In this document: positions 4,833 through 46,795 of the stretch, piece after piece
How positions within the stretch are numbered: the first letter of the stretch is position 1
How the letters are laid out: each line of letters opens with the position of its first letter
Assembly (NCBI GenBank): GCA_016932915.1
Contig: JAFGBY010000030.1
Coordinates: 9,671-73,670, forward strand
Direction: 5' to 3'
From: Acidobacteriota bacterium
Lineage (GTDB): Bacteria; Acidobacteriota; DATKUA01; JAFGBY01
DNA length: 64,000 nucleotides
Translations under genes and position numbers: made by a program
The notes under the pieces: generated by a model
Seen by the model: only the letters and a program-made list of their open reading frames with translations
What the model was told of the DNA's origin: nothing
The model's database searches: none

Positions 4833-4839
4833 CTTTCTC

Positions 4840-5502: not shown

Positions 5503-5719
5503 TTTCAAACTGCTAACATTTACTTCTACTTATACGCATTAATATAGCGTAAGTTCCATAATATAGAACCACCATTTCATTTTTTCAAGCTATATTTACA
5601 TTTTTTTAAACAAATAATACATTTTTTGAAAAGAACGTTTAAAAAGGCGATCGCATGTTATAAGGATATTTTCAATCGTAAATTTAAGATAAGAATACTA
5701 ATAACACTATAATAATAAA

Positions 5720-5765
5720 AAAACTGGTTGATAATAAAATAACGCTGTGGATAACTCCACAGCGT
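5720..5765 (-). terminator. Rho-independent terminator downstream of the MBL-fold gene (10-bp stem acgctgtgga/tccacagcgt, loop taac, T-run on the minus strand)
   Basis: Perfect inverted repeat at 5742-5765 followed (minus-strand sense) by a U-rich stretch. Confidence 0.5.
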
Positions 5766-5797
5766 CATATTTAAAAAGCTTATTATATAGACAGATT

Positions 5798-30101: not shown

Positions 30102-30178
30102 GAAGAGCCCTCTTAAACTTATGATTTATTATATATTGTACAACTATTAAACTCAAGCAGCCACTTATGCAGAACGCT

Positions 30179-31702
30179 TTAGTGATTATTCCCGGAAAGC
30201 TCAACTTCTATATCATCAGATGCACTATGATCGAGCCTTATTTTTCTGCGCCCCACTGAAACCACCCATGTTTCCCCATCATCCACCCTGCTTTCGAGGA
30301 CAATGCAATTGCCTTTTTTTAAACCCGATTTCTTTGCGCGTTCACCGATTGCTGTGACAGTTGCCTCGGAACCTGTGCGTAGCAGGCTCAACTGAAACTT
30401 TTTACCCTTCGCAACTTGTAATGGATCTGCCGGAATCGACTCCCCGTGAGGTCCCTCTTCCGGGTGACCCAGCATACCGTCGATATAACCGATTGCTTCG
30501 TTATCGTGCAGATGTTCCAGGTGATGGGCTATGCTGTGAACCTGACCTTCGGGCGCCCCAACTTTCTGTAAATAGGTCTCCCAGAGACGATGAGCTCGTA
30601 ATATCCTTACTGCTTCTTTCTCCCCTGAATCGCTGAGCTTGAATCCGCCATCGGAAGAGATAAGCATTTCATCCTGGGTCAACAGGCGGAGGCCTTTCGA
30701 CAGATACTTATCGTGTGAATGAATGTAACCCTTGATAACCTGTTCACTGACAGGTTTACCTCCCTCACGAAGGATAGTCACCAGGATATCCTCAGTGAGT
30801 TCCTGTGGAATCATTCGCATCCTGCGGAGCTTCTTCGCAATCATCCCGTAGCGTGGAGCAACCGCAAGGACAAACAGAAATTGGAAAGTACAGAATAGCA
30901 TAATCGCCCCGCCGCCGGATGAATCGAGCCAGATGCTTATATATAGCCCCCCGATAACACTTGTCGTCCCAAAAAGCGCTGCGAGAAGCATCATCCGGTC
31001 AAGCCGGTCACTCAGCAGGTATGCCGTAGCAGCGGGCGTAATGAGCAGGCCCACAACAAGAATTACACCAACCATGCTGACAGCGCTAACGACTACCAGT
31101 GAAACCGAGGTCGTCAGCAGGTAATCGATCAGCACCACCGGAATTCCTATAGAAGCCGCCATGATGGGATCAAACGCGGTAATCTGGAAATAACGGAAGA
31201 ATAATATAATCAAGGTCAGGACAATCGACGCTACGATTGCCGCCACCCAGAGGTCGCTATCCGCGATTCCAAGCACATCGCCCATTATGAAATGGACTAT
31301 ATCGATATGAATATATTCATGGAAAACCGAAACCAGAACGACGCCGGCAGCAAAGATGCCTGTATAAATAATTCCGATTGCGGTATCTTCCTTTATCCTT
31401 GAAATATTTGAAACAAAACCTATCAACGCCACGGTCACAACCGCAGCAATTATGGAACCGATCAGCATCGCAGGGGCGTATGCCTCCACGTCGAATATCA
31501 GCTTCATAAAGAGGTAACCGCCGCTCACTCCTGCGATCATAGCGTGCGAAAGGGCATCACCCAGGAAGGACATCTTCCTTAGAATAACAAGACATCCGAT
31601 GACAGAGCAGACTACCGCGGCTATTGTCCCGCCGATCATCGATTTTACGAAAAATGCCTGGCCAAGCGGTTCGATAAAAGCGGTATGGAGCAGTTCTATC
31701 AT
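30179..31702 (-). CDS. Metal (Zn/Mn/Fe-type) ABC transporter permease fused C-terminally to a complete DtxR-family metalloregulator (HTH + metal-binding + FeoA/SH3-like)
   Basis: N-terminal ~290 aa form an ABC-3 type permease (8-9 TM). Residues ~300-507 parallel DtxR along their length (RAHRLWETYL vs RKHRLAERLL; HSIAHHLEHLHDNEAIGYIDGMLGHPEEGPHGESIP vs the DtxR metal-site region; terminal SH3-like ...KGNCIVLESRVDDGETWVVSVGRRKIRLDHSASDDIEVE). Confidence 0.7.
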   Translation of the reverse strand: MIELLHTAFIEPLGQAFFVKSMIGGTIAAVVCSVIGCLVILRKMSFLGDALSHAMIAGVSGGYLFMKLIFDVEAYAPAMLIGSIIAAVVTVALIGFVSNISRIKEDTAIGIIYTGIFAAGVVLVSVFHEYIHIDIVHFIMGDVLGIADSDLWVAAIVASIVLTLIILFFRYFQITAFDPIMAASIGIPVVLIDYLLTTSVSLVVVSAVSMVGVILVVGLLITPAATAYLLSDRLDRMMLLAALFGTTSVIGGLYISIWLDSSGGGAIMLFCTFQFLFVLAVAPRYGMIAKKLRRMRMIPQELTEDILVTILREGGKPVSEQVIKGYIHSHDKYLSKGLRLLTQDEMLISSDGGFKLSDSGEKEAVRILRAHRLWETYLQKVGAPEGQVHSIAHHLEHLHDNEAIGYIDGMLGHPEEGPHGESIPADPLQVAKGKKFQLSLLRTGSEATVTAIGERAKKSGLKKGNCIVLESRVDDGETWVVSVGRRKIRLDHSASDDIEVELSGNNH

Positions 31703-32475
31703 ACGGCTGCCTCCTTCGCTTTCAACTCGGTGAAAACACGGAGGTTTCCTTCATAGACTTCACTGAGGAGATCAGTATCCAATACCTTCTCAGGCGGGCC
31801 ATATGCATAAAGACGTTGCTTGATCAAAATAATCCGGTCGAAGTATTCGGCTGCGGTCGCAAGGTCATGATGGACAACAATAAGAGTCTGCCCGTTTTTC
31901 TTGGCAGCTTCGAGGACATCCAGTATCGCCCGCTCCGTGGCGGCATCGACACCTGCGAACGGTTCATCAAGAAGTAACAGATCCGCTCCCTGCGTGAGAG
32001 CCCGCGCCATGAATACCCTCTGCTGTTGTCCACCGGAGAGCTGGCCTATTTGCCGTTTACGGAAGTTCTCCATCTTGACCATCTTCAGCGCTTCATCCAC
32101 CAGATCTCGGTCATCCTTTCCCGGATTTTTCCACCAGGCGATTTTCCCGTATCTGCCCATCAACGCCACCTGCTCGACGGTCACTGGAAAATCCCAGTCC
32201 ACAGCGCCCCGCTGGGGAACGTAAGCAACTTTGCCTTTTGATTCGGCCAGGGGATTCCCGAATACATTTACCGAGCCGAAATCAGGCTCTATAAAGCCAA
32301 GAATCGATTTAAGTAAGGTCGACTTGCCCGAGCCGTTCGGCCCGATAATGCCGACCATTATCCCGGGCGGTATATCAAATGAGATGTCCAGCAGGGCAGG
32401 TTTCGGGCCGTAGCTGACCGTCAGGTTCTTCACCTGCAATGCCGATTCCAAATTACTACTTTTTTTCCCCGCCAT
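31699..32475 (-). CDS. Metal ABC transporter ATP-binding protein (ZnuC/MntA/TroB-like)
   Basis: Walker A GPNGSGKSTLLK, signature LSGGQQQRV, Walker B LLLLDEPFAGVD. Confidence 0.85.
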   Translation of the reverse strand: MAGKKSSNLESALQVKNLTVSYGPKPALLDISFDIPPGIMVGIIGPNGSGKSTLLKSILGFIEPDFGSVNVFGNPLAESKGKVAYVPQRGAVDWDFPVTVEQVALMGRYGKIAWWKNPGKDDRDLVDEALKMVKMENFRKRQIGQLSGGQQQRVFMARALTQGADLLLLDEPFAGVDAATERAILDVLEAAKKNGQTLIVVHHDLATAAEYFDRIILIKQRLYAYGPPEKVLDTDLLSEVYEGNLRVFTELKAKEAAV

Positions 32476-32480
32476 ACCTG

Positions 32481-32966
32481 CTAATTATCCTTCGCCTTGT
32501 CCTCATTAAAAACAACTGTCATCACTACAGGTTCCTCCGGCTCGAACCAGAACACATCGGAGAAATATTTCACCCCATCCTTTTTTATCTCAACATTCAC
32601 TGCAGCTGGGCGTGTTGCGTCTTCAGAAGATCTTGATAGCTCTATAAAAACTTCGTTCTTTCCCTCGATGATTCCCGGGAGATTATTTATCCTGAATGTG
32701 CTGTCAAACGGTGATTTCATCATCTCGCCCGTAAGCCTCATTCCATTGATACTGATCACCGCATTCTCCCCGCCTTGAGCGTTCAGGAGGAAAACCTCTT
32801 CCCAGCTGATTTTAAACGTCGTGGAGATATCCAGGGTATAAATACCTTCCGCTTTTTCGGGCTCCGCAATGTGATGAGTTTCCTCCCCTGTATCACGGAT
32901 ACCCATATAGAGAAACAGGCCACCGATGAGCAGCACGTTTATAAATATCGCAATTAATGGCCTCAT
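32481..32966 (-). CDS. Hypothetical membrane-anchored periplasmic protein within the metal-uptake operon
   Basis: N-terminal TM (LIAIFINVLLIGGLFLYMGI) followed by a ~130-aa soluble domain with His/Glu-rich stretches. No identifiable family. Confidence 0.35.
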   Translation of the reverse strand: MRPLIAIFINVLLIGGLFLYMGIRDTGEETHHIAEPEKAEGIYTLDISTTFKISWEEVFLLNAQGGENAVISINGMRLTGEMMKSPFDSTFRINNLPGIIEGKNEVFIELSRSSEDATRPAAVNVEIKKDGVKYFSDVFWFEPEEPVVMTVVFNEDKAKDN

Positions 32967-32974
32967 CCGTTTTT

Positions 32975-33889
32975 CTACTCCAGAGCTTTCACAATTTTTA
33001 ATACATTCTCGCGCATCATCCCAATGTAAGTATCTCCCGCCGTGCCGTGTTCACCCATTGAATCGGAATACAACTCACCACCTATCTTAATGCCCGTCTC
33101 CCTCGCAATCTCACGGATGAGCTTGGGATTAACGCTGGTCTCCACGAAAAAAGCCCTCACACCCATCTTTTTGGTAGATTCAATTATCTCGATCCTGCGT
33201 TTAGGCGTCATCCCCGCCCCTATCTCTGAGCCGGTCGACCAGCCGACAGGCGCTTGAGCATCGATATTATACGTCCTGCCGAAATAATTGAACGCATCAT
33301 GGCTCGTAATTAGTATCCGCCTATGGGGCGGTATCCTGCTTACTTCTTTCTTGATCCAGGCATGAAGGTTCCGCAGCTGCTGCAGATAAAGCCTGGCCCT
33401 CGCTTCGTACTTTTCCTTGTTTATCGGATCGAGTTTACAAACCGCTTCCGTAATGTTGCGAACGTAGACAGCGGCGTTCCTGGGATCAAACCAGGCATGA
33501 GGATCAGGAACAGTCTGCCCGCTTTTTTCAATTATCAATGGTTCGATCCCGTCCGTGCAGGTGACGATCGGTTTACCCGCATCCTTCGCAAGTGTCGCCA
33601 TCCAGTTTTTCCCTTCGAGATGAAGGCCGTTCTCGAAACAGAGGTCTACGCTTGCAGCGCGCTGGGCATCACCCGGAGTAGGCTGATAAGTATGAGGGTC
33701 AGCTCCCGGCGGAAGCACTGCGTAAACAATGCAGTCATCACCTACTACGTTTTTCACAAAGTCATTAATCTGGGTGGTCGAACAGAATAAAACCGGTTTG
33801 CCTTCTCTTTCGGCAGCTAATAGAAAAAAGGAAAAAACAACCAGGATAAAAACTATATACAAAAATGAGGTTTTAATATTTTTCATCAA
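32975..33889 (-). CDS. Metal ABC transporter substrate-binding protein (cluster A-I, ZnuA/TroA/MntC-like)
   Basis: Signal/TM anchor. Conserved metal-ligand regions (PPGADPHTYQPTPGD; ITSHDAFNYFGRTYNI; YSDSMGEHGTAGDTYIGMM). Confidence 0.8.
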   Translation of the reverse strand: MMKNIKTSFLYIVFILVVFSFFLLAAEREGKPVLFCSTTQINDFVKNVVGDDCIVYAVLPPGADPHTYQPTPGDAQRAASVDLCFENGLHLEGKNWMATLAKDAGKPIVTCTDGIEPLIIEKSGQTVPDPHAWFDPRNAAVYVRNITEAVCKLDPINKEKYEARARLYLQQLRNLHAWIKKEVSRIPPHRRILITSHDAFNYFGRTYNIDAQAPVGWSTGSEIGAGMTPKRRIEIIESTKKMGVRAFFVETSVNPKLIREIARETGIKIGGELYSDSMGEHGTAGDTYIGMMRENVLKIVKALE

Positions 33890-33985
33890 ATGTTTGGACC
33901 AATGGTTAATATAAAGAATCGTTTAGGAATCCATTTTACCAAATCTTTTCTGAACATCAACAAAGCACTGAAAATACTCATACAA

Positions 33986-33998
33986 TACATAAAATGTA
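33986..33998. promoter_or_regulatory. 13-bp perfect palindrome TACATAAAATGTA overlapping the predicted start site of the metal-uptake operon promoter. Candidate operator for the fused DtxR-like domain.
   Basis: Seen in sequence. Minus-strand promoter elements TTGCTG (rc of 34034-34039) - 17 nt - TTATAA (rc of 34006-34011) place the TSS near 33998. Confidence 0.3.
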
Positions 33999-34151
33999 CT
34001 TCGCGTTATAATTTCTATAAAACAAAATCAGCAATTTTGCGTTTATTATTGTGACAGACATAAAATAACCTCTCTGGAGTGGTTAGGTAAAAACGGGTCA
34101 CAATGTAACGGCCCGTTTTTTTTATCATTCTAAAACATTCCCCTATCTTTC

Positions 34152-34179
34152 TTGACAATTTCATACACGGAATTATAGT
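34152..34179 (+). promoter_or_regulatory. Sigma70-type promoter (TTGACA - 16 nt - TATAGT) upstream of the Rieske/cyt b/CydA-like operon. It implies a ~170-nt leader.
   Basis: -35 at 34152-34157 and -10 at 34174-34179. The first gene's ATG is at 34356 with SD AGGAG. Confidence 0.45.
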
Positions 34180-34355
34180 ATCAGTGAATGGATAATATCT
34201 CCCGGATATGTTCACTAATAGTCAAACAACGGTTAAGAACGCAAATTTAAGGTCTTTATATAAATAGAACTCCTGAGGCATCCGGAAAATAATATGCACT
34301 CAGAGTAGTTAATATTATTAACAATTGTATTTTGGGAAAAGGAAGGAGACCTCTT

Positions 34356-35477
34356 ATGCCAATTAGTTATTTCCCGCTGGCTGACCCGATCCCTCTACCG
34401 GCTCCGGTGTGGTTTTTCAAATTGCTCCACACCGTCACATTGACCCTGCATTTTTTTGCAGTGCATCTGTTGATTGCCGGTCTTATCCTCGGGATTGCAT
34501 GGGCGCTGAATGCAAGGTTCAGGGGCCGTAGCGTCAGTATGGAATCCGCTGGGCTTATAACAAACCGCCTCCCGATGGTGATGGCATTTGTTATAAACCT
34601 TGCGATACCGCCGCTGCTGTTCACGCAGGTGCTTTACGGCAATGCCCTGTTCAGCAGCAGTATAATGATCGGCCTGTTCTGGATATCGGTAATTTTCCTT
34701 GTAATCATCCTGTATTATTTCCTCTACATCTCACAGCAGAGGCTGAACAAGGGTAAATCATGGTGGTGGCTGAACTTGATAGCCCTGGTACTCGTTTTTA
34801 AAGTAGCGCTTATCTATGTCAACAATATGACCCTCATGCTGCGGCCTGAAGCCTGGCCGGAGATGTACAAAAACAGCCCGATTGGAGCGCAACTGGCATC
34901 CGGAGACCCGACGATAATCCCCAGGTGGCTGTTCATGATATTCGCTTCACTTGCCCTCGGCGGAACCGGTATACTCATACTTTCCATGAAAAAATCGATC
35001 ACCGACGAAGTAAGGAAATACCTCAGGCTCTGGGGTTGTGCGATAACTGCTGTATTCGCTATGGCGATTATCCCACTAGGTATGTTGGTTATAAACAACC
35101 AACCAGATACCGTTCGCCAGGCGATAAAGGAAATGGATGTTTATTCGCAGTTCCTGAACATCTGGAAAGCCTCAGCGGCGTTACTGGTAATGGCAGCGAT
35201 AATGACAGCAGCACAAGCTTATAACGCTCGGAAAATCTTCCCTGTATTAGCATTTGCTGCCGCATTTATAAATATCCTGAGCTGGGTGGTGGTAAGAGAC
35301 GGCATCCGGGATATCACATTATACGAAAAGGGATTGGATGTATGGAACCGTACAATAGCGACAAACTGGTCTGTAGTAATTTTCTTCCTTGTGCTGTTCC
35401 TGGTTGCAATAGGAGCGCTTATCTGGATGACAAGATTAATTTTCACGATGAAAGAGAAAAAGGAGTCTTATGCCTGA
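34356..35477 (+). CDS. Polytopic membrane protein (~10 TM). Its N-terminal helix motif resembles the downstream CydA-like protein, so it may be a divergent CydA'/CydB-like partner subunit. Start re-assigned to the ATG at 34356.
   Basis: LLHTVTLTLHFFAVHLLIAGLILGIAWAL parallels IAIIHILISHFAVGGGIYLAFAE of the 37055 gene. No soluble domains. The TTG at 34332 lacks an SD, whereas the ATG at 34356 has AGGAG 8 nt upstream. Confidence 0.45.
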   Translation: MPISYFPLADPIPLPAPVWFFKLLHTVTLTLHFFAVHLLIAGLILGIAWALNARFRGRSVSMESAGLITNRLPMVMAFVINLAIPPLLFTQVLYGNALFSSSIMIGLFWISVIFLVIILYYFLYISQQRLNKGKSWWWLNLIALVLVFKVALIYVNNMTLMLRPEAWPEMYKNSPIGAQLASGDPTIIPRWLFMIFASLALGGTGILILSMKKSITDEVRKYLRLWGCAITAVFAMAIIPLGMLVINNQPDTVRQAIKEMDVYSQFLNIWKASAALLVMAAIMTAAQAYNARKIFPVLAFAAAFINILSWVVVRDGIRDITLYEKGLDVWNRTIATNWSVVIFFLVLFLVAIGALIWMTRLIFTMKEKKESYA

Positions 35478-35967
35478 CAAAACAAAAAAAACAGTAAGCA
35501 CTGACCCTGGTAATCGTGAAGATAAAGTTAATGTAACCCGGAGGAAATTTATAAGGGCCGGGATGGGAGCAGCAGGCGTTGCATATGCTGCCGCGCTCGG
35601 TTACCCGGTTTATAGATATCTGGCTGATCCGGCGGAGAAAGCAGCAGCGCAGGCAGCAGAGACAGAAAAAGAATTAGTCGGCGCGGATACGCTGCCGCAG
35701 GGAAGCGCAATGATTTTCCGTTTCGGCGGACAGCCTGCATTATTGATTCATCACGAAGATGGCTCGTGGGTATCGTTCAGCGCAGTATGTACTCACCTCG
35801 CCTGCACGGTTGAGTTCCAGAAAAAAGAAAAACGGATACACTGCGCGTGCCACGGCGGAACATACGATATGTACACGGGGAAGAACATAAGCGGTCCTCC
35901 CCCGAAACCGTTAACCCCTTTTAAAGTGGAGGTGTTAGATGGCAAAGTCAAAATCGCTAGGGCCTGA
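35470..35967 (+). CDS. Rieske [2Fe-2S] iron-sulfur protein with a Tat signal
   Basis: Twin-arginine motif TRRKFIRAGMGAAGVAYAAALG. Rieske boxes CTHLACTV and CACHGGTYD. Confidence 0.85.
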   Translation: MPDKTKKTVSTDPGNREDKVNVTRRKFIRAGMGAAGVAYAAALGYPVYRYLADPAEKAAAQAAETEKELVGADTLPQGSAMIFRFGGQPALLIHHEDGSWVSFSAVCTHLACTVEFQKKEKRIHCACHGGTYDMYTGKNISGPPPKPLTPFKVEVLDGKVKIARA

Positions 35968-37042
35968 TACTATGGGGACACGGTTTTATAAATGGCTCGA
36001 TGAACGCCTGGCTCTGAGCACTATGGCGGGATTCCTTTCGAAGAAAACCGTTCCACAGCATAAGCACTCCCACTGGTATTACTGGGGTGGTATAACGCTT
36101 ACGTTCCTGATCGTACAGTTCATCACCGGCATACTCCTGTTAATATACTACAAACCGGGGCCGGATGCGTTCGAATCGGTCCGATTTATAACTTATGAAC
36201 TTGAATTCGGCTGGTTCATCAGGGGGCTTCATCACTGGAGTGCTAACCTGATGCTACTGGCGTTATTCATACACATGTTCTCTGTTTTCTTCATGCGGGC
36301 ATACCGCAGGCCGAGGGAATTCGGCTGGTGGACAGGTGTATTACTTCTTCTCATCACATTGGGATTCGCATTCAGCGGCTACCTGCTGCCATTTGATGAA
36401 TTATCCTACTTCGCCACTAAAATCGGCCTTGACGTAGCGGAATCATTACCTTTGATCGGCCCCGCTCTTGCCGCAATTGCCCGGGGAGGAACAGACGTAA
36501 CTTACCTGACCATACAGCGGTTCTTCACCCTGCATATTATAGTGCTGCCGTTGATAATCCTGGGAATATTGACAATTCACCTTGTCCTCATCCTAAAGCA
36601 TGGAAATGCCTCACCACCAAGCGAAGAGGCCAAACCGAAGAACAAACGGAAAGAGATAAAATTCTTCTGGGACTTCTTCGTGAAAGATATCACGATGTGG
36701 CTACTTGCTCTAAATTTCCTGATACTGGTCACAATTCTCTTCCCACCGCAGCTCGGCTCACCCGCCGATCCCCTGGCGCCCGCCCCCGAAGGTATACATC
36801 CCGAGTGGTATTTCATGAGCCAGTATCAATTCCTTAAGATATTCGGCAACATTCTACCCGGCGCCATTGGTGAGTTTATAAGTATCGGATTGATGGCATG
36901 TGCCCTGCTTTTATGGGCAATCGTTCCGTTGATTGATAATACCGGAAAGGCAGGGAAAAGAGCAAAAGCGGCAACATATATCGGCTTGTTATCAATAGTA
37001 ATCCTCGTGGTGCTCACAGCGTGGGCATACCTGGCAATATAG
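35939..37042 (+). CDS. Cytochrome b (b6-like N-terminal four-helix bundle fused with a subunit-IV-like C-terminus)
   Basis: His pairs in helices B and D (RGLHHWSANLMLLALFIHMF; TLHIIVLPLIILGILTIHLVLILKHG). PEWY motif (HPEWYFMSQYQFLK). Strong SD GGAGGTG before the ATG at 35939. Overlaps the Rieske gene by 29 nt. Confidence 0.85.
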   Translation: MAKSKSLGPDTMGTRFYKWLDERLALSTMAGFLSKKTVPQHKHSHWYYWGGITLTFLIVQFITGILLLIYYKPGPDAFESVRFITYELEFGWFIRGLHHWSANLMLLALFIHMFSVFFMRAYRRPREFGWWTGVLLLLITLGFAFSGYLLPFDELSYFATKIGLDVAESLPLIGPALAAIARGGTDVTYLTIQRFFTLHIIVLPLIILGILTIHLVLILKHGNASPPSEEAKPKNKRKEIKFFWDFFVKDITMWLLALNFLILVTILFPPQLGSPADPLAPAPEGIHPEWYFMSQYQFLKIFGNILPGAIGEFISIGLMACALLLWAIVPLIDNTGKAGKRAKAATYIGLLSIVILVVLTAWAYLAI

Positions 37043-37054
37043 AGGAGGTGGAAG

Positions 37055-38476
37055 ATGAATTATCCAGTTTGGGTTGTACCGGTGATTGGAAGCGGATGGG
37101 TAATAGGGATAATCGCGATTATTCATATTTTAATATCCCATTTCGCAGTTGGAGGAGGAATCTACCTCGCTTTTGCTGAAAGAAAAGCCAGGAAAGAGAA
37201 CAGGAAAGACTGGCTCGAAATTATCCAAAAACATTCAAGGTTTTTCCTGTACCTTACTATTGTAGCCGGGGCAATGACGGGAGTCGCAATCTGGTTTTCA
37301 ATCGCACTCTCCAGCCCGGAGGCGACAAGCGCGCTCATTCATAACTTCGTTCTCGGCTGGGCATCGGAGTGGACTTTCTTTATAATTGAGATAACCGCGA
37401 TTATAGTCTACTACTATACCTGGAACAGAGTCTCAGCGAAAAAACACGAAGCTGTAGGCTGGATATATGCAATATCCGCGTGGATGAGCCTCTTCATAAT
37501 CAATGGCATCCTGACATTTATGCTCGATCCCGGGAAAGGCTGGTTATCAGTCGCGGGGACGGGCGCAGAACCATCAAAATTCTGGGAAGCTTTTTTTAAT
37601 CCGACCTATTTCCCGAGCCTGTTGATGCGGACCCTTGTTTGTATTACGCTTGCAGGCCTGTTCGCGATGGTAACCGCCAGCCGTATAAATGAAGAAAAGG
37701 AGCCAAAATTAAAGGAACAAATCGTTAAATGGTCGGCAAAATGGCTGATGCCGGCGTTTGCCCTAATTCCAGTTGCAGCGCTCTGGTATTACCTGATGCT
37801 CCCACAGGCAAATAAAGACCTCTTCAAACTTGGAGTCTCCACAATCGGCCAGGGAATATTCACACAGCTAACAAGGAACGCCGTTTTCCTGATTTTCGCT
37901 TCTATTATTCTTTTCTTCATCGCTTATGTATTCCTCTGGCGTCATCCAAAATCCGTCAAACTTTCACATGCACTTTTGATAATCCTTCTCGCGTTCAGCA
38001 TTATCGGTGTAACGGAACATATGCGGGAGATGATGAGAAAACCATATGTAATTGGTAACTATATGTATTCCAACGGAATCAGGAAATTTGACGCGGAAAA
38101 ATTTAATTCGGAGGGATACCTGAGGAATACAATCTGGACAACAGAAGAATCAAAAACCACATGGCATATCCAAGACACAATGACGTCGGAAGAATCAGAC
38201 AATTTATCATCACCCATTCAACCTGATTTGTACAGGGGCGAATTGATGTTCCGCGGGCAGTGTATCGCTTGCCATACAACGAATGGTTACCGCTCGATAA
38301 GTAAATTGCTGAAAGGTCGTGACGAGGCATCGATACGCTCTATCATTGATATGCTGCATGAATACAAAGAAGATTCGCCCTACAGAAAATTTATGCCTCC
38401 ATTGGTCGGAACCAAGGGAGAAGTAGACGCATTGATCAAATACCTGGATTCACTGATTAATAAAATAGATCAATAA
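37055..38476 (+). CDS. Cytochrome bd oxidase subunit I (CydA)-like membrane protein with a C-terminal monoheme c-type cytochrome domain
   Basis: Aligned by eye to E. coli CydA landmarks as recalled from memory. IIHILISHF resembles the YHFLFVPL/H19 region. ASEWTFFIIEIT resembles IEGLMAFFLEST (E99/E107). YYTWNRVSAKKHEAVGW resembles FFGWDRLGKVQH (H126). FNPTYFPSLLMRTLVCITLAGLF resembles LNPVAQVKFVHTVASGYVTGAMF, so the heme b595 ligand His186 is replaced by Arg. C-terminal CIACH (CxxCH) in a ~90-aa soluble tail. SD GAGGAGGTGG. Confidence 0.6.
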   Translation: MNYPVWVVPVIGSGWVIGIIAIIHILISHFAVGGGIYLAFAERKARKENRKDWLEIIQKHSRFFLYLTIVAGAMTGVAIWFSIALSSPEATSALIHNFVLGWASEWTFFIIEITAIIVYYYTWNRVSAKKHEAVGWIYAISAWMSLFIINGILTFMLDPGKGWLSVAGTGAEPSKFWEAFFNPTYFPSLLMRTLVCITLAGLFAMVTASRINEEKEPKLKEQIVKWSAKWLMPAFALIPVAALWYYLMLPQANKDLFKLGVSTIGQGIFTQLTRNAVFLIFASIILFFIAYVFLWRHPKSVKLSHALLIILLAFSIIGVTEHMREMMRKPYVIGNYMYSNGIRKFDAEKFNSEGYLRNTIWTTEESKTTWHIQDTMTSEESDNLSSPIQPDLYRGELMFRGQCIACHTTNGYRSISKLLKGRDEASIRSIIDMLHEYKEDSPYRKFMPPLVGTKGEVDALIKYLDSLINKIDQ

Positions 38477-38488
38477 AAAGACGAAAAT

Positions 38489-38520
38489 GCCGGGCCTTCA
38501 AAGCCCGGCATAATTTTGTT
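38489..38520. terminator. Bidirectional rho-independent terminator between the convergent 37055-38476 (+) and 38531-39082 (-) genes
   Basis: gccgggc-cttcaaa-gcccggc stem-loop flanked by aaaat on the left and ttttgttt on the right. Confidence 0.65.
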
Positions 38521-39206: not shown

Positions 39207-40691
39207 CTATTGGAATCTGGAATAGTACTCAATAAATGTAGGATCGAATATCTTTTTACTAAAGCTGTATTCCGGGTCTAATTCTGACACTTTTTTCATA
39301 TATACTTCAGCGGAGGAAAGAAGATTTGCATCCTGTTCACCGGTCAATCTATATCTCGAGAAATATACAAGCCCCAGGAAAGCATTCATACCGGCGCTGT
39401 CTTCGTATGCCGGCAATGCTTCAAGGAAAGTATCCGTAGCTTTTTCCAGGTCTCCAGCTAAATAGTACTTCAAACCGATATTAATCTTATCCCGCCCAAC
39501 GACTTTAAAATCTTTATAGAATCCCCGGACCTGTTCATTTGTGCTGTCCAGTGCGTTGGCTTTATTGTAATAAGTCCTGGCGGACGAATAGTCTTTTTGA
39601 TCAAGCGCCTGTTTCGCGCCATCAATATATTCCCTGATTTCATCTTTCATCTTATCCGAACCGGAAGCAGCCTGGAGTTTTTTATTTATCTCCCCCAGCT
39701 GGTACTTCGCCCTGCTGTTTTCTGGATCAATTCTGAGGGCCCTTTCGAATTTCAATTTAGAATTCACCAGGTCGCCCGCTTTATAATCTTCTATTGCGTT
39801 ATCAACCAGCGCTTCCGCTTCCTTCTGTTTTTGCTGTGAGGCTGCTCTCTCAGAATTACTCCTCGCATCCCTGATAAGTTTATCCAATGTTTTATTTTCC
39901 GGTTGGAGGTTTTGCGCCTGTTTGTACATCTTTATCGCAGATGAATAATCGCCTGATTTTTCATAATCCTTACCGCTGTTTACATAGCGCTCCGCCTTTT
40001 CAGCATTATCAATTTTTGTAATCCATTGGCGCGCTTCTTTATTAGCTGAATCTTCTTTCAGTGCTTTATTGAAAGCGGTCTTTGCAGCTGAATAGTTCCC
40101 ACGGTCGTACTCGCGTCTACCATCTCGAATCGCATTATTGATTCGGCTTTGACGTTGTGCGTTTTGTAATTCTGTAGATGTCAAAACAGTCGTTGAAGTT
40201 TTAACCGTGGCGGTTGGCTGTACTGTAGTAGTGGCAGTGGGTGTAATCGATGTCGGAGTCACAACCGGTGTTGTTGTCGTAGTCGAAGTATTCTGGTTAG
40301 AAGCGCTCACACGCTGTTTTCCATCGCTCAACATACTGTTCAACCTTGAATACAAATCCTTACTTTCACGGATTTCGCCTTCCTGGTTAGAACGCTCAAG
40401 CCATGAAATCGCCTGTGAATAATTTTTTAGTTCATAATGGCAGAGGCCAAGATAATAATAAGGGAAATAATCGATATATTTAGTACCGTAAGCCCTTCTT
40501 CCGGCTTTCGGTGATGGTTCCTGAGCAATCAATCGGTTAAGGATGCTTACCGCCGCGCCGAAATTACCATCATCGATTAATTCTATTGCCCTCTCATATG
40601 TCTCGTACCATCTCTCAGCAAAAACTAATGATGAGAAAAGACAAATAACAACAAGCAGAACAACTGGGCTTTTAATTATATTTCTCATCAT
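39207..40691 (-). CDS. Secreted TPR-repeat protein with a Thr/Pro-rich linker. Paralogue of 26060-27343.
   Basis: Signal peptide. FAERWYETYERAIELIDDGNF...YIDYFPYYYLGLCHY block shared with the 26060 gene. TSTTTTTPVVTPTSITPTATTTVQPTATVKTSTTV linker. Many TPRs. Confidence 0.6.
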   Translation of the reverse strand: MMRNIIKSPVVLLVVICLFSSLVFAERWYETYERAIELIDDGNFGAAVSILNRLIAQEPSPKAGRRAYGTKYIDYFPYYYLGLCHYELKNYSQAISWLERSNQEGEIRESKDLYSRLNSMLSDGKQRVSASNQNTSTTTTTPVVTPTSITPTATTTVQPTATVKTSTTVLTSTELQNAQRQSRINNAIRDGRREYDRGNYSAAKTAFNKALKEDSANKEARQWITKIDNAEKAERYVNSGKDYEKSGDYSSAIKMYKQAQNLQPENKTLDKLIRDARSNSERAASQQKQKEAEALVDNAIEDYKAGDLVNSKLKFERALRIDPENSRAKYQLGEINKKLQAASGSDKMKDEIREYIDGAKQALDQKDYSSARTYYNKANALDSTNEQVRGFYKDFKVVGRDKINIGLKYYLAGDLEKATDTFLEALPAYEDSAGMNAFLGLVYFSRYRLTGEQDANLLSSAEVYMKKVSELDPEYSFSKKIFDPTFIEYYSRFQ

Positions 40692-42853
40692 TCAATCCCC
40701 AGTTCTTTAAGGAATGTCTCAGAATTCATATTCGAGATATTATAATTCAGGTTGTTGACCTGCCCCTCGACCACCGAAACATCGAAGGTCTTTCGGACAT
40801 TCAGACTGTCATTAAACACAGTGATCGTATACTGCCCTACTGGAAGTTTCAGCTCACATGGAGAGACCTTCCCGGCTACCTCTATTTCTTTATTTGAACT
40901 ATCCACAACTGACTCAATGGTTCCCCAGGGCACAACGTTTATTCTTACAAGCCCTTCTCCGGCTACAAGAGGACGGCCAATCGGCTCAGTTTCTTTACCC
41001 TTACCGGTAAATAGGATAACCGCCACGATGGCAATTGCGATAACTGCGACAACTCCTAATATTATTGGAAGTGGAGATTTTCCGGGTTTTTTTGCCTTGA
41101 TTGTAGCGGAAGGCTCCGGTTTGTATTCCTTTGCTGCTCCAGTATAAACAGTTGGGGCATCAGGTGCAATTTCCTGCTTTCGTATACCTGTAGTCGGCGT
41201 CGCGACAACAGTAGGAACAGAAGTACTTTCCATTCCTCCTGAATAAACAGTTTCCTGTTCTGCCGTTTTTGAACTTTTATCCATTAATGTGGCGACTTCA
41301 GAAGTTGTTTTCACACCTGCAGCGACAAATGTTTCGCTATCAGGAGGAACTGCAGCCCCCCCGGTAAGTTTATCCAATTCCGATTTTACTTTAAGGACAT
41401 CTGGATCGTTGGAATCAAGAGAAAGTGCAGCAGACAGGGATTTCTGCGCTTCATAATAATTCTTTACCCTTATGTTCTCCTTGATATGATTTAGAATCAT
41501 ATCAATTTGCTTCTTATCATCAGCCCGATCACGCTTGTTATTGATCGCCTCTCTTAATTCAGTGGAATATTTATTCTTTGGATCGATATCATCAAGAAGT
41601 TTAACTTCTTTTAACGCATCGATATATTGACCTTTGTTTATCAGTGTATTGATCTTCTTGACTTGATCATTAAGCAGCTGTTCTTTTTCCTTATCAGCAA
41701 TCGTAGTCTGGATACGGGAAATCATTATTTTAGCGGAAGTATCATCAGGAAGAATATCGAAAGCGCTTTCAGCCATTTTATAAGCTTCTTTAAATTTCTC
41801 TTCCTTGTAGAGTTTGTCGGCCTGTTTTAATATTCCCTCAACATCGCCTTTTTTAGTTTTGATAAGTTCCGATTCGACCTTTTCAATTAACCTCTTTAAA
41901 ACTGAATTATCAGGATCGAGAGATAGAGCTTTATTATATATCTCCGCTGCATTCTGGAATTTCTTCGCCTTCATCAGGTTTTTACCCTGTTCGATGAGCT
42001 TAACAATCTCTCCCTGAAGCGCTGGCTGAGTAGCCATTTTCTTTTCGCCGTAAAGATCAATGACGGCTTCGAGATCTTTGATCATCTCACTCATTGATTG
42101 ATATCTCTTCTCCTGTTCCTTCTCAACCGCTTTCATAATTACAGTTTCAATTTCGATAGGAACATCGAGATTCAACTCCTCAAAACTTGGCAGTGGTTCG
42201 TGGGCAATTTTATATAAAATAGTTGTGATCGATTCTGATGTAAAAGGTTTCTTGTGAGTCATCATCTCCCACAGGATTATACCTACAGAGAAAATATCTG
42301 AACGGTTATCGATCTTTTTACCCATAACCTGTTCGGGAGACATATAATCAGGGGTACCGATGATCATGCCGGTCTTGGTCATATCGGATGAAGCCATATG
42401 AGCAATACCAAAATCCATTAATTTAGCTTTACCGGTTTTAAGCAGCATTACATTAGCCGGTTTGATATCCCTATGAACAACTCCCTTGTTATGCGCGTAT
42501 TCGCATCCCTTACAAATCTGGAGAATGATATTTAGCTTCTCAGGAAGAGACAGTTCCTGCGTGAGCATTATATGCTTTAAATCATCGCCATCGAGAAATT
42601 CCATAGCGATATAATAGGTCTGGTCATCATGGCCTAAGTCATATATGGTGATTATATTCTCGTGGTTCAGCTGCGCTGCCGCCTGGGCTTCGATCAGGAA
42701 ACGTTTTAACATCTCCTCATCTTTATCAACGCCTTCTAACATAGTTTTCAGCGCAACAAGCCTGCCCAGAACGGAATCCCTGGCACGGTATACCATTCCC
42801 ATGGCGCCCTTGCCTAGTTCACCGATGATTTCATATTTTCCTATCTTCTTCAT
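40688..42853 (-). CDS. Hanks-type Ser/Thr protein kinase with intracellular TPR repeats, a TM segment and a C-terminal extracytoplasmic PEGA-like domain
   Basis: GKGAMGMVYRA, HRDIKPANVML, DFGIA, GTPDYMSPE. TM ILGVVAVIAIAIVAVILF. C-terminal KVSPCELKLPVGQYTITVF. Confidence 0.8.
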   Translation of the reverse strand: MKKIGKYEIIGELGKGAMGMVYRARDSVLGRLVALKTMLEGVDKDEEMLKRFLIEAQAAAQLNHENIITIYDLGHDDQTYYIAMEFLDGDDLKHIMLTQELSLPEKLNIILQICKGCEYAHNKGVVHRDIKPANVMLLKTGKAKLMDFGIAHMASSDMTKTGMIIGTPDYMSPEQVMGKKIDNRSDIFSVGIILWEMMTHKKPFTSESITTILYKIAHEPLPSFEELNLDVPIEIETVIMKAVEKEQEKRYQSMSEMIKDLEAVIDLYGEKKMATQPALQGEIVKLIEQGKNLMKAKKFQNAAEIYNKALSLDPDNSVLKRLIEKVESELIKTKKGDVEGILKQADKLYKEEKFKEAYKMAESAFDILPDDTSAKIMISRIQTTIADKEKEQLLNDQVKKINTLINKGQYIDALKEVKLLDDIDPKNKYSTELREAINNKRDRADDKKQIDMILNHIKENIRVKNYYEAQKSLSAALSLDSNDPDVLKVKSELDKLTGGAAVPPDSETFVAAGVKTTSEVATLMDKSSKTAEQETVYSGGMESTSVPTVVATPTTGIRKQEIAPDAPTVYTGAAKEYKPEPSATIKAKKPGKSPLPIILGVVAVIAIAIVAVILFTGKGKETEPIGRPLVAGEGLVRINVVPWGTIESVVDSSNKEIEVAGKVSPCELKLPVGQYTITVFNDSLNVRKTFDVSVVEGQVNNLNYNISNMNSETFLKELGIE

Positions 42854-42917
42854 ATCGGAATCTATCTCTCGTTCAATTAACTGAAAAATTATCTAAAAGT
42901 ATTACTAAGTAATCCCC

Positions 42918-44279
42918 TCAGAATGCTAATTTAAATTTTACTTTTAATCCCTGATGTTTGCTTAATTCAAGGAGGTCGTTATCCTTCAATACCTGAGCCA
43001 TTACCTTACGGCCATTTACATATGTGCCATTGAGGCTGCCCTTATCGACGATTACATATTCATTATCCTGGTAATGGATCTCCGCATGCAGTTTGCTTAC
43101 TCTGGGCTGCGGAATAACAATATCGTTCGATGAATGCCTGCCGATTTTGATCGGATGCTCCTTGTAAACCGGAGTTTCTTCCGCCCCCAACCCACTGATA
43201 TTTATCAGCTTGAAACCGATGGCCTGTGAAGGTTTATCCTGCGCGGCCGCATCCTCCAGGCTTGTGTTGTAATCAATCGAGGACGGCAGGGAATGCAGGG
43301 AAAAATCGACACTATCTACTGCAATCGAAGCCAAAGCGTCATAAAGTTCTCTTGCAGTGCTGAACCTGCTTGCAGGTTTTTTCTCAAGACACTTCATGAT
43401 TATCTTATCAAGGGTTGAAGAGATATTAACATCTTTAAGCTTCCCAACCTGCTTTGGCTTATCTTTTACCTGTTTGACCATAACGTCGACCGGATTCAGT
43501 GCATTAAATGGTACATCACCCGAAACGACCTCATACATGATTACTCCAAGCGAATAAAGATCAGCACGTTGATCCAGGGTTTCGCCCTGCACCTGCTCCG
43601 GTGACATGTACTGCGGGGTACCAAATACAACTCCTTTTTGAGTGAGTGTACCACCGGTTGTTCTGCCTCCGACATCCATCAGCTTAGCGATACCAAAATC
43701 GAGAACCTTCACAAAATCCTGCCGGTTATTCTTATTGCAGATCATGATGTTCTCGCTTTTTAAATCCCTGTGGATAATACCCTGGCCATGGGCTTCCTCC
43801 AGAACTTCACATATCTGGAGGAAAATCGGTATTGCCCTCTCTTCAGGGAAAGCGCCGTCACGAGTAATCAATACCTTCAAATCAAGGCCATTTATATATT
43901 CCAGGATAATATAAACGAGACCATCCTCGGTTTGCCCAAAATCATACATAGAAACCGCATTAGGATGAGAAAGTTTGGATGTGTTTTTTGCCTCCCGCCT
44001 GAATCTTTCGAACGATTCCGTATTCTCAGCAAAATCCTCCCTCAAGACTTTAATAGCGACATCCTTATCGAGCATAAGGTGTTTTGCCCTGAAAACATAC
44101 CCCATGCCTCCTTCACCCAGTTTCTCTGAGATTACATAATGGCCACCGATCTTTTTACCGATAAATGTAATTTCGGTCGCAGGTGTGGCAGGAAGCCTAT
44201 TGCCACAAAACGGACAGAACTTCCCTTCACTAAAAAAATCGGCAGTTATATCTTTAGTGCAATATGGACAAGCCGGCAT
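42918..44279 (-). CDS. Ser/Thr protein kinase with an N-terminal zinc ribbon and a C-terminal FHA domain
   Basis: CPYCTKDI...CPFCGN. Kinase motifs HRDLKSENIM, DFGIAK, GTPQYMSPE. FHA IKIGRHSSNDIVIP...VIVDKGSLNGTYVNGRKV. Confidence 0.8.
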   Translation of the reverse strand: MPACPYCTKDITADFFSEGKFCPFCGNRLPATPATEITFIGKKIGGHYVISEKLGEGGMGYVFRAKHLMLDKDVAIKVLREDFAENTESFERFRREAKNTSKLSHPNAVSMYDFGQTEDGLVYIILEYINGLDLKVLITRDGAFPEERAIPIFLQICEVLEEAHGQGIIHRDLKSENIMICNKNNRQDFVKVLDFGIAKLMDVGGRTTGGTLTQKGVVFGTPQYMSPEQVQGETLDQRADLYSLGVIMYEVVSGDVPFNALNPVDVMVKQVKDKPKQVGKLKDVNISSTLDKIIMKCLEKKPASRFSTARELYDALASIAVDSVDFSLHSLPSSIDYNTSLEDAAAQDKPSQAIGFKLINISGLGAEETPVYKEHPIKIGRHSSNDIVIPQPRVSKLHAEIHYQDNEYVIVDKGSLNGTYVNGRKVMAQVLKDNDLLELSKHQGLKVKFKLAF

Positions 44280-44315
44280 CTCGTTATTATCTTAATTTAT
44301 TTTCCAGTTAATATG

Positions 44316-45761: not shown

Positions 45762-45779
45762 CGCATCCTCCTTGGATTA

Positions 45780-46784: not shown

Positions 46785-46795
46785 CCAATTGAGTC

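Follow-up and report, generated by a model that had tools for sequence, protein, structure and literature searches.

A Rieske/cytochrome b pair between two bd-type genes

In the 64,000-nt stretch of an Acidobacteriota genome analyzed here (the window; contig JAFGBY010000030.1), four tightly packed genes on the plus strand encode, in this order, an OR-C1b-like second bd-type subunit (34356..35477), a Rieske [2Fe-2S] protein (35470..35967), a cytochrome b (35939..37042) and a CydA-like protein of the OR-C1a type (37055-38476). The last of these genes is a real ORF of 473 aa, starting with ATG at 37055, ending with a stop at 38476 and preceded by a GGAGG Shine-Dalgarno sequence. The Rieske gene overlaps the OR-C1b-like gene by 8 nt and is in turn overlapped by the cytochrome b gene by 29 nt, while a gap of 12 nt separates the latter from the OR-C1a gene. 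Upstream of the first gene, TTGACA-16-TATAGT (34152..34179, plus strand) agrees with the sigma-70 consensus at 11 of 12 positions and is a promoter candidate by this consensus match only, the number of sigma-70-like sites in the region not being above the shuffled expectation. At the other end, a GC-rich hairpin flanked by T-rich tails on either strand (38487..38511, a pattern match only) lies 11 nt past the OR-C1a stop and is likely a bidirectional terminator closing the four-gene unit.

The two central genes are assigned by profile matches. The Rieske protein is recognized by Pfam PF00355 (E = 9e-14) as well as by NCBIfam models for b6f/bc1 Rieske proteins and TAT signals, and bears the twin-arginine motif RRKF at residue 24 and the cluster motifs CTHLAC (107-112) and CACH (125-128). 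Cytochrome b matches PF00033 (E = 2e-45), PF13631 and PF00032 in Pfam and the cytochrome b6 model of NCBIfam (E = 2e-65), and combines a b6-like N-terminal portion with a C-terminal portion resembling subunit IV in a single chain, with the histidine pairs H98/99-x13-H112 and H199-x14-H214 and an intact PEWY Qo motif (288-291). Neither CxGG nor CxxCH occurs in the cytochrome b sequence, and the sole CxxCH motif for c-type haem in the four-gene unit is located on the CydA-like protein.

The first gene encodes 373 aa from ATG, or 381 aa when read from an alternative TTG start at 34332, and its product is annotated as "hypothetical" and has nine predicted transmembrane (TM) helices. No Pfam or NCBIfam model is matched, including PF02322 (CydB). 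Nevertheless, comparison with the family of c-fused CydA-like proteins by hhalign gave 97.2% (E = 3e-11, 270 columns), and the AF2 model of the protein (pLDDT 88) matched CydA and CydB chains at a probability of 1.0. The histidine His32, equivalent to His24 of the CydA-like protein and H19 of E. coli CydA, is invariant and Asp315 is found at the place of E325 and E445, respectively, whereas the two channel glutamates are missing. A 364-aa gene immediately preceding that of an OR-C1a relative with eight haems is clearly related (hhalign 99.95%, E = 1e-38). By these profile and model comparisons, the "hypothetical" gene is identified as encoding the paralogous OR-C1b subunit.

The order OR-C1b, Rieske, cytochrome b and OR-C1a is kept in all 74 informative loci, i.e., those with enough upstream DNA, from Acidobacteriota, Hydrogenedentota, Verrucomicrobiota, Planctomycetota, Armatimonadota, Sumerlaeia and one Thermochlorobacter MAG, and the same four genes are present at the locus of a relative of 41% identity. 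Among these 74 loci, no cytochrome c1/f gene was found in or beside the cluster. A separate conserved cytochrome c1 was also considered and rejected, as no additional CxxCH-bearing ORF is conserved across the 74 loci, and so was a conserved fifth gene, as no flanking family appears in more than 23 of them, these being closely related genomes. In other OR-C subclades, Rieske and cytochrome b genes are not adjacent.

Conserved and lost residues of the CydA-like protein

Although sequence identity to canonical CydA amounts to only 14-18% and a BLASTP comparison with E. coli CydA is marginal (E = 1e-4, residues 109-183), the relationship is well above significance by more sensitive means. Residues 15-228 match Pfam PF01654 with E = 1.1e-20 (74 bits versus a cut-off of 26.2), and the family profile matches Geobacillus CydA (5doq_A) with E = 9.6e-13, thereby pairing the columns of H21, E101, E108, H128 and the Glu-RQPW motif and placing the Q-loop opposite a gap. 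The AF2 model (pLDDT 93.5, pTM 0.91) shows eight TM helices (13-47, 51-86, 88-121, 128-157, 185-208, 217-248, 271-296 and 303-328) making up a membrane domain of residues 1-329 (37055..38041, plus strand), and the ten best PDB matches obtained with Foldseek are all CydA chains (probability 1.0, TM 0.5-0.57). No NCBIfam model exists for either of the two bd-type subunits. From profile and fold comparison, the 37055-38476 product is thus identified as a genuine CydA homologue, bearing out the original prediction in this respect.

Residue equivalences were established by MAFFT against E. coli CydA, HMMER against Geobacillus CydA and the family HMM against E. coli CydA, and conservation was calculated from 222 relatives reaching down to about 31% identity. 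All three alignments agree in equating H24 with H19, E105 with E99, E112 with E107, H131 with H126 and S145 with S140, the distance between E105 and E112 being one residue shorter than that between E99 and E107. Hence, the motif matches that had been made by eye for H19, E99/E107 and H126, located at residues 22-30, 103-114 and 122-131, withstand formal alignment; a further one, made for the block around H186, lies at residues 181-197. His24 (codon at 37124..37126, plus strand), corresponding to H21 in Geobacillus and to the axial ligand of a high-spin haem, is conserved in 95% of the relatives. Glu105 and Glu112 (E-x6-E, 37367..37390, plus strand), whose counterparts provide the haem site with its distal residue and the proton channel with its glutamates, reach 97% each, H131 is found in 92%, and the S140 position is always occupied by Ser or Thr. 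Directly after TM8 lies the motif E321-x3-E325-x2-R328-K-P (38015..38041, plus strand), which as E-x3-E-x2-RKPY corresponds to E-x2-RQPW in E. coli. The second high-spin haem has a conserved Glu ligand, E445 in E. coli, and E325 aligns with this residue as well as with its Geobacillus equivalent. E325 is itself present in 96% of the relatives, so that E445, proposed for checking along with Met393, does have an equivalent. E325 was equated with E445 from a short motif as aligned by HMMER, the method used after about residue 230, where MAFFT mis-pairs the sequences, for instance E325 with N414, and the table of Murali et al. (2021), in its available part, has no E445 entry for OR-C1a.

Where TM5 ends on the periplasmic side, Met191-Arg192 (37625..37630, plus strand) stand in the position of H186, and by none of the alignments used does a histidine fall on this position. 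The original prediction of a replacement of this His by Arg accordingly holds for the loss, whereas the Arg is obtained with HMMER against Geobacillus only (R192); MAFFT and the spacing from the NP motif point to M191, a position varying between L, F and M in the family. The latter choice agrees with the Phe (F183) given for the H186 column of the OR-C1a reference (Murali et al., 2021). Arg192 itself is shared by 221 of the 222 relatives (99%), and no mention of this near-invariant residue was found in the available part of the same work. For Met393 there is no conserved counterpart, its column being assigned to A276 at low confidence by the family HMM against E. coli CydA. TM7 contains neither a conserved Met nor a conserved His, and no residue of TM6 or TM7 reaches 85% among the 222 relatives. 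Likewise, a long Q-loop is absent as had been suspected, TM6 and TM7 being linked by about 22 residues (249-270) that leave the Geobacillus Q-loop aligned to a gap. In sum, the alignments indicate that the O2-site residues H24, E105, E112, H131, S145 and E325 are kept and that the b558 ligands and the Q-loop are lost. Besides, three other histidines, to which the model proposed below gives no role, are conserved at 88% (H29), 77% (H60) and 80% (H96).

C-terminal to the membrane domain follows a class-I cytochrome c domain (about residues 385-468, 38207..38458, plus strand), as derived from the family profile, motif conservation and helices of the model, and placed in the periplasm by the positively charged loops of the sequence. 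Its haem attachment motif CIACH (C403-I-A-C406-H407, 38261-38275) and Met447 (38393-38395), the probable sixth haem ligand, are both encoded on the plus strand. Matches to PF13442 and PF00034 stay below the cut-offs of these models, and the family profile matches chains of CcoP, actinobacterial QcrC and cytochrome c6 with E values between 1e-8 and 1e-5. C403, C406, H407 and M447 are invariant in one family alignment (A2), and across the 222 relatives the first three reach 96-97% and M447 93%. Sequence and fold together thus indicate that the four-helix core, the binding place of two high-spin haems in canonical CydA, has remained intact along with its proton channel, and that a periplasmic cytochrome c domain with a single haem stands in place of TM9.

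With this architecture the protein belongs to an already known kind, being assigned by its residues to OR-C1a of the cytochrome bd superfamily. The preprint by Murali, Gennis and Hemp defining this group reportedly appeared later in the ISME J. In the preprint, the OR-C family with OR-C1a and OR-C1b is delineated bioinformatically (Murali et al., 2021, bioRxiv 10.1101/2021.01.16.426971). All ten reference residues of OR-C1a (H24, E105, E112, S145, H131, L153, Y119, Y121, V77 and W80) are identical in type and number here, and each is the majority residue among the 222 relatives (70-99%). Moreover, the orthologue AEP11669.1 from Chloracidobacterium thermophilum shows 55% identity over 99% of the length and appears, by organism and annotation rather than by a sequence match, to be Cabther_A0912, which is included in the published OR-C1a list with the genome scored as OR-C=1 (Murali et al., 2021). 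In the literature searched, this work was the only prior description of OR-C1a found; Dibrova 2017 and the paper on the Ignavibacterium genome offered nothing on the subject.

Proposed electron path and rival explanations

We consider it probable that the CydA-like protein is the OR-C1a subunit I of a self-contained chain from quinol to O2, in which the fused haem c replaces both cytochrome c1 and haem b558. Quinol would be oxidized at the Qo site of the Rieske/cytochrome b module, with one electron passing by way of the Rieske cluster to haem c of the fused domain, the equivalent of c1 and functional stand-in for b558, and from there to the high-spin haem pair as the site of O2 reduction. Protons for water formation would be drawn from the cytoplasm through the E112/E105 channel, while the second electron would be recycled via haems bL and bH in a Q-cycle. 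We infer the substrate (O2), the type of the haems (b or d) and the assembly of four proteins; the AlphaFold model is an apo model, and haem binding is not visible in it or in the sequence. O2 reduction by OR-C is extrapolated from the qOR enzymes. That a fused cytochrome c could serve as electron entry point and make the Q-loop dispensable had been part of the original prediction, in line with the position of CIACH and Met447 on the only c-type haem protein of the operon, and the same idea is found in Murali et al. (2021), where cytochrome c-fed O2 reduction by OR-C is proposed, albeit not measured.

A narrower proposal holds that the four genes specify one obligate Rieske/cytochrome b plus bd-type assembly without c1, in which the Rieske-reduced haem c feeds a copper-free O2 site; this is put forward tentatively, our doubts slightly outweighing the case for it. 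The competing view, which strikes us as rather unlikely, is that the genes are merely co-regulated and that electrons would pass from the Rieske/cytochrome b part via a soluble or separate cytochrome c to the fused c domain. Other OR-C subclades do work without adjacent Rieske/cytochrome b genes, so the c domain should be able to take electrons from other donors and co-transcription at the present locus is no proof of a physical complex; in addition, the window covers 64 kb of the genome, and other cytochromes c may be encoded elsewhere. Rieske/cytochrome b complexes, however, normally have a c-type acceptor of their own, whereas no c1/f-type gene occurs in or beside the cluster in the 74 loci, and the flanking of the Rieske and cytochrome b genes by the two bd-type genes with overlapping frames is more typical of one assembly. 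The absence of another c subunit from the operon, together with the presence of c subunits of actinobacterial bc1 complexes among the best PDB matches of the c domain, might alternatively suggest that the CydA-like part is a degenerate, haem-free anchor for the c subunit of an unusual bc complex without any terminal reductase. This is very improbable, since conservation of H24, E105, E112, H131 and E325 at 92-97% in relatives down to about 31% identity, subclades without Rieske/cytochrome b included, is unexpected for a mere anchor, which would also have no need for a second paralogous bd-type subunit.

Regarding the reaction itself, a His is indeed absent from the H186 column, with an invariant Arg there or beside it. 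The original prediction had taken the lack of this His as loss of the b595/d site next to a preserved b558, pointing to chemistry other than O2 reduction or to another cofactor. That reading is hardly credible any longer, having been reversed by a swap of haem assignments: H19 ligates a high-spin haem, which in Geobacillus is b595 and in E. coli haem d (Murali et al., 2021; PMC8951039), whereas H186 and M393 ligate the low-spin haem b558 (Murali et al., 2021, Supplementary Table 6; PMC8951039). The residues conserved at 92-97%, equivalent to H19, E99, E107, H126 and E445, are therefore those of the high-spin site and the proton channel, whereas the protein has neither of the b558 ligands and no Q-loop. 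A retained di-haem bd-type site might still act on a substrate other than O2, such as H2O2, NO or another oxidant, or serve mainly in detoxification of O2 or reactive oxygen species. No biochemical study or assay of any OR-C enzyme was found in the literature searched, one multi-haem relative adjoins a canonical cydAB operon, and the conserved residues His29, His60, His96 and Trp80 are missing from canonical oxidases. Desulfovibrionia are sulfate reducers. The multi-haem relatives belong to a type reported from this group (Murali et al., 2021), and alternative physiological roles of high-affinity terminal oxidases were cited by Eichorst et al. Despite these points such a function seems distinctly unlikely, as the full proton channel (E105, E112, H131, S/T145) corresponds to the need of a four-proton reaction from O2 to water, the link to a Rieske/cytochrome b module with a Q-cycle suggests a branch of respiration that conserves energy, and the orthologue is the only member of the bd family scored for the genome of the microaerophile C. 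thermophilum by Murali et al. (2021).

Returning to the OR-C1a reading, what had looked like loss of the O2 site would be the opposite, with the O2 site kept and the quinol front end (b558 and Q-loop) swapped for a cytochrome c. If the one-assembly proposal is true, the four proteins would form a quinol oxidase joining a Q-cycle with bd-type chemistry, with a higher energy yield per electron than that of canonical cytochrome bd, and subunit II, whose H19-equivalent His is invariant, may carry one or more extra haems. The gene order in every informative locus and the absence of a c1 gene predict a supercomplex of the bc-bd type. In databases, the partner is labelled "hypothetical protein" and OR-C1a "cytochrome ubiquinol oxidase subunit I", a name that is misleading for the 37055-38476 product on its own, and because of these names respiratory chains may be mis-scored in Acidobacteriota, Hydrogenedentota, Verrucomicrobiota and Planctomycetota. 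The wiring of OR-C1b, Rieske, cytochrome b and OR-C1a, for which no description under OR-C was found in the available part of Murali et al. (2021), is kept in several poorly studied phyla. With C. thermophilum, a cultured organism carrying an orthologue may be used as a test case.

Comparison with known systems

The locus shares with the OR-C proteins described by Murali et al. (2021) eight TM helices with equivalents of H19, E99, E107, S140 and H126, the lack of b558 ligands and of a quinol site, a C-terminal periplasmic CxxCH domain and a paralogous "b" subunit in which the channel glutamates are missing. However, OR-C1b stands beside OR-C1a in that description, whereas here and in 74 related loci the Rieske and cytochrome b genes are found between them. 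Compared with canonical CydA (E. coli 6rko/6rx4 and Geobacillus thermodenitrificans 5doq), the fold, the high-spin ligands His and Glu and the channel residues are the same, the spacing of the glutamates being of the Geobacillus (qOR3) type. In contrast, H186, M393 and the Q-loop are absent, eight instead of nine TM helices are present and a cytochrome c is fused. Canonical bd oxidases are further encoded with an adjacent CydB gene (PF02322), while the partner here is not a PF02322 protein and lies three genes upstream.

With regard to Rieske/cytochrome b genes in the same operon, the locus resembles OR-N1 and OR-N5a/b from Nitrospirota and Chloroflexi, where petA, petB and petD are encoded with a bd subunit devoid of a quinol site; in the available part of Murali et al. 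(2021), pet genes are mentioned for OR-N1 and OR-N5 only. This likeness suggests quinol entry through a bc-type module in both cases, but it does not define membership. OR-N subunits contain 10-14 TM helices and retain His in the H186 column (H222, H183 and H202), and a fused haem c is no part of their definition (Murali et al., 2021). Assignment of the present protein to OR-N, considered for its pet genes, was consequently rejected on account of its eight TM helices and the lack of a His at this column.

The actinobacterial bcc-aa3 supercomplex (e.g., PDB 7q21, 6hwh and 6adq) offers a functional parallel, though its oxidase part is not homologous, for a path from Rieske/cytochrome b via a membrane-tethered cytochrome c to a terminal oxidase without any soluble carrier. 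There, a haem-copper aa3 oxidase is combined with a separate di-haem c protein, whereas in the predicted four-protein assembly a bd-type subunit itself carries the fused c haem. Finally, archaeal CydAA' (qOR4a/qOR4b) from Caldivirga maquilingensis differs from OR-C1a in that its CydA (qOR4a) has kept H186, M393 and the quinol site and comes with neither haem c nor Rieske/cytochrome b genes. Its paralogous subunit, however, retains the H19 equivalent without E99 and E107, just like the product of the OR-C1b-like gene.

Ligand set of the cytochrome-c-fused CydA homologue

The CydA-like ORF at 37055-38476 (+) starts with ATG behind a GGAGG ribosome-binding site and runs to 473 codons; its product is 100% identical to GenBank MBN2134423.1, named "cytochrome ubiquinol oxidase subunit I" in an Acidobacteria MAG. 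Its similarity to CydA is significant and well above chance, with a Pfam match to PF01654 over residues 15-228 (E = 1.1e-20, 74 bits versus a cut-off of 26.2) and with Geobacillus CydA (5doq_A) matched in the PDB sequences at E = 5.5e-5 by phmmer and at E = 9.6e-13 with a 100-sequence family profile. When the AlphaFold2 model built from the 100-sequence family alignment (pLDDT 93.5, pTM 0.91) was compared with the PDB by Foldseek, CydA chains took the first ten places, each at probability 1.0, with CydB chains next in rank. Identity to the matched chains is 18% at most, hence no close relative with a solved structure is available.

Three independent alignments (MAFFT versus E. coli K-12 CydA, HMMER versus Geobacillus CydA and the family HMM versus E. 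coli CydA) place H24 at H19 of E. coli (H21 in Geobacillus), E105 at E99, E112 at E107 with a Geobacillus-like inter-glutamate spacing shorter by one residue, W123-x-R125 at GWDR, H131 at H126, S145 at S140 and N182-P183 at the NP preceding TM5, confirming the by-eye matches to H19, E99/E107 and H126 in the original prediction. Likewise, E321-x3-E325-x2-R328-K-P-Y after TM8 aligns with W-x3-E445-x2-RQPW of E. coli and its Geobacillus equivalent, so that E445 has a counterpart in E325, which is 96% conserved. Met393, also proposed for checking, has no conserved counterpart, and TM6 and TM7 do not hold any residue reaching 85% conservation in the alignment of relatives. A histidine at the H186 position was found neither by MAFFT nor by NP-motif spacing or HMMER. 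The predicted replacement of His186 by Arg is thus correct regarding the missing His, while an Arg (R192) occupies this column only in the HMMER alignment anchored on the second Pro; by MAFFT and by spacing from the NP motif it is M191. Among 222 full-length relatives, position 191 is variably hydrophobic (L 125, F 44, M 12) and R192 is kept in 221. The presumed lack of a long Q-loop was borne out, the TM6-TM7 connection being about 22 residues long and the Geobacillus Q-loop aligning to a gap.

According to Supplementary Table 6 of Murali et al. (2021) and the review PMC8951039, low-spin haem b558 beside the quinol site has H186 and M393 as axial ligands, H19 binds a high-spin haem (haem d in E. 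coli, b595 in Geobacillus), E445 the other high-spin haem, and the proton channel is made up of E99, E107, S140 and H126. The original prediction had swapped these labels, and what it described as loss of the b595/d site with b558 retained is the reverse. With H19 and E445 as high-spin and H186 and M393 as b558 ligands, the protein is predicted to have kept the O2-reducing site and to have lost the quinol-oxidising haem b558, and the claimed oddity vanishes. The closing idea of the original prediction, a fused cytochrome c rendering the Q-loop dispensable, stands. In this C-terminal class-I cytochrome c, C403-x2-C406-H407 and Met447 do not vary across the 100 aligned sequences, and the domain is periplasmic, since the K/R-rich loops 42-52, 122-130, 209-225 and 296-302 lie on the cytoplasmic side.

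Further positions conserved in the family differ from E. coli CydA, namely H29 (37139-37141; 88%, P24 in E. coli), H60 (77%, M51), H96 (His 80%, Arg 11%; D90) and W80 (99%, E74), with H29 (TM1) and H96 (TM3) sitting close to the haem region in the periplasm-facing half of their helices. These residues could alter haem ligation.

A four-gene unit with Rieske protein and cytochrome b

The ORF is the last of four tightly packed plus-strand genes (overlaps of 8 and 29 nt, last gap 12 nt); pattern matching placed a promoter-like site before them (34152-34179) and a terminator-like hairpin after them (38487-38511). Gene 2 (35470-35967, +) encodes a Rieske protein with twin-arginine signal and the motifs CTHLAC and CACH, and gene 3 (35939-37042, +) a cytochrome b with fused subunit-IV part, showing H-x13-H and H-x14-H pairs and the PEWY Qo motif (both Pfam, NCBIfam). 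By motif inspection, CxGG and CxxCH are absent from this cytochrome b, and the sole c-haem motif of the unit is on gene 4.

Gene 1 (34356-35477, +; 373 aa, annotated hypothetical) did not match any Pfam or NCBIfam family. Its product is a bd-fold paralogue, aligning by hhalign with the family of the gene 4 protein (97.2% over 270 columns), and matches of its AF2 model (pLDDT 88) at probability 1.0 include CydA as well as CydB chains. As it is also homologous (99.95%, E = 1e-38, hhalign) to a gene that abuts an 8-haem OR-C1a relative, OR-C1a being the cytochrome-c-bearing subunit, it is the OR-C1b partner. It has an invariant His32 where CydA has H19 and an Asp in place of E445, both channel glutamates are missing, and R-D-x2-R-D is near-invariant at the E445/RQPW position. 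Because of this His and the R-D-x2-R-D motif, subunit II might bind its own haem; in canonical CydB, quinone occupies the cavity corresponding to that haem position (PMC8951039).

From the best 80 genomic loci plus two from Chloracidobacterium thermophilum, 74 had enough upstream DNA, the other eight ending at contig ends. All 74 show order and strand OR-C1b, Rieske, cytochrome b, OR-C1a, across Acidobacteriota, Hydrogenedentota, Verrucomicrobiota, Planctomycetota, Armatimonadota, Sumerlaeia and one Thermochlorobacter MAG. Any further gene family flanking the unit is present in 23 of these loci at most, and no conserved extra CxxCH ORF was found. The same four genes accompany a relative at 41% identity; remoter OR-C relatives (34% identity, 31% identity and the 8-haem type) have just an a/b pair side by side, without Rieske protein and cytochrome b.

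Four Acidobacteriaceae/Terracidiphilus loci (L059, L070, L075, L056) hold extra stretches of 0.6-0.9 kb between the Rieske, cytochrome b and OR-C1a matches, which could contain small ORFs or cytochrome b extensions. In locus L088 (1-3942), the mono-haem relative at 31% identity directly follows genes for a UbiA-family prenyltransferase and a CtaG/Cox11 copper chaperone, a context normally belonging to haem-copper oxidases, and is followed by its b-type partner gene. On contig L084, a canonical cydAB operon (232-2898; PF01654, PF02322, Rrf2 regulator) divergently adjoins the OR-C1b/OR-C1a pair of the 8-haem type (3910-7544); hence, two bd-type systems coexist side by side.

The respiratory operon has 47.0% G+C versus 40.9% in the whole window, for which membrane-protein codon content or horizontal acquisition may be the cause; the 2-kb blocks containing the neighbouring ABC-transporter genes show 47.6-48.7% (all within 30001-38000). 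These genes belong to a divergent ZnuA/ABC-3 type metal uptake operon (30179-31702, 31699-32475, 32481-32966 and 32975-33889, all -), in which the permease is C-terminally fused to a DtxR-type repressor dimerisation domain (PF02742) and a FeoA-like domain, and an unannotated 161-aa membrane-anchored protein sits between the ATPase and ZnuA genes. A dense signalling cluster (28773-30101 and 40688-47698, -) flanks the respiratory operon, comprising three Ser/Thr kinase-like ORFs recognised by eye and, with Pfam support, a TPR protein, an FHA-trypsin fusion, a PP2C phosphatase and a zinc-ribbon-FHA protein.

Proposed electron route and alternatives

The Rieske/cytochrome b module would oxidise quinol at its Qo site, the second electron driving a Q-cycle, and the Rieske cluster would reduce the fused haem c, which would act as c1 equivalent and b558 replacement. 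From haem c, electrons would pass to the high-spin haems at H24/E105 and E325 for the reduction of O2, with E112 and E105 conducting the protons from the cytoplasm. In this scheme, the reduction of O2, the nature of the haems and the joining of the four proteins in one complex are inferred.

Mere co-regulation of the four genes, with a soluble cytochrome c linking the Rieske/cytochrome b pair to the oxidase subunit, is a minor possibility. A substrate other than O2, or a detoxifying role, appears rather improbable. That the subunit is a haem-free anchor is very unlikely and fits the conservation data poorly, as does the originally predicted arrangement of haem sites, which is scarcely credible.

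Comparison with the described OR-C family

By the definition of Murali, Gennis & Hemp (2021), OR-C proteins lack a quinol site, carry CxxCH on a periplasmic extension at the C-terminus of subunit I, retain H19/E99/E107 and typically have 8 TM helices. The window protein has the features defining this cytochrome bd superfamily family. All ten residues of the OR-C1a reference row (H24, E105, E112, S145, H131, L153, Y119, Y121, V77 and W80; Murali et al., 2021) were found with the same numbering; for the H186 column, the row gives Phe. Moreover, it shares 55% identity over the full length with AEP11669.1 from C. thermophilum, whose Cabther_A0912 is in the authors' OR-C1a list with one haem c and which their genome table scores OR-C = 1 and nothing else (Murali et al., 2021). 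Hence, the protein adds to a family already described bioinformatically; a literature search found no biochemical study of an OR-C enzyme. Relatives amount to 3119 matches among the candidates scored in 90%-identity protein clusters and 1092 cluster representatives at the 50% level, and a single peptide pattern search located them in at least 589 species genomes.

Worth notice are the strictly conserved operon embedding Rieske protein and cytochrome b without c1, the near-invariant Arg192, the E445 equivalent and the invariant His of subunit II. In the passages of Murali et al. (2021) drawn on here, the 'b'-type subunits show the same residue pattern as the gene 1 product. However, the OR-C1a table there has no E445 equivalent, whereas the window protein retains E325; OR-C1b is adjacent to OR-C1a, whereas Rieske and cytochrome b genes lie between them here; and pet genes are named for OR-N1 and OR-N5 only, in contrast to the four-gene unit, which carries them with OR-C1.
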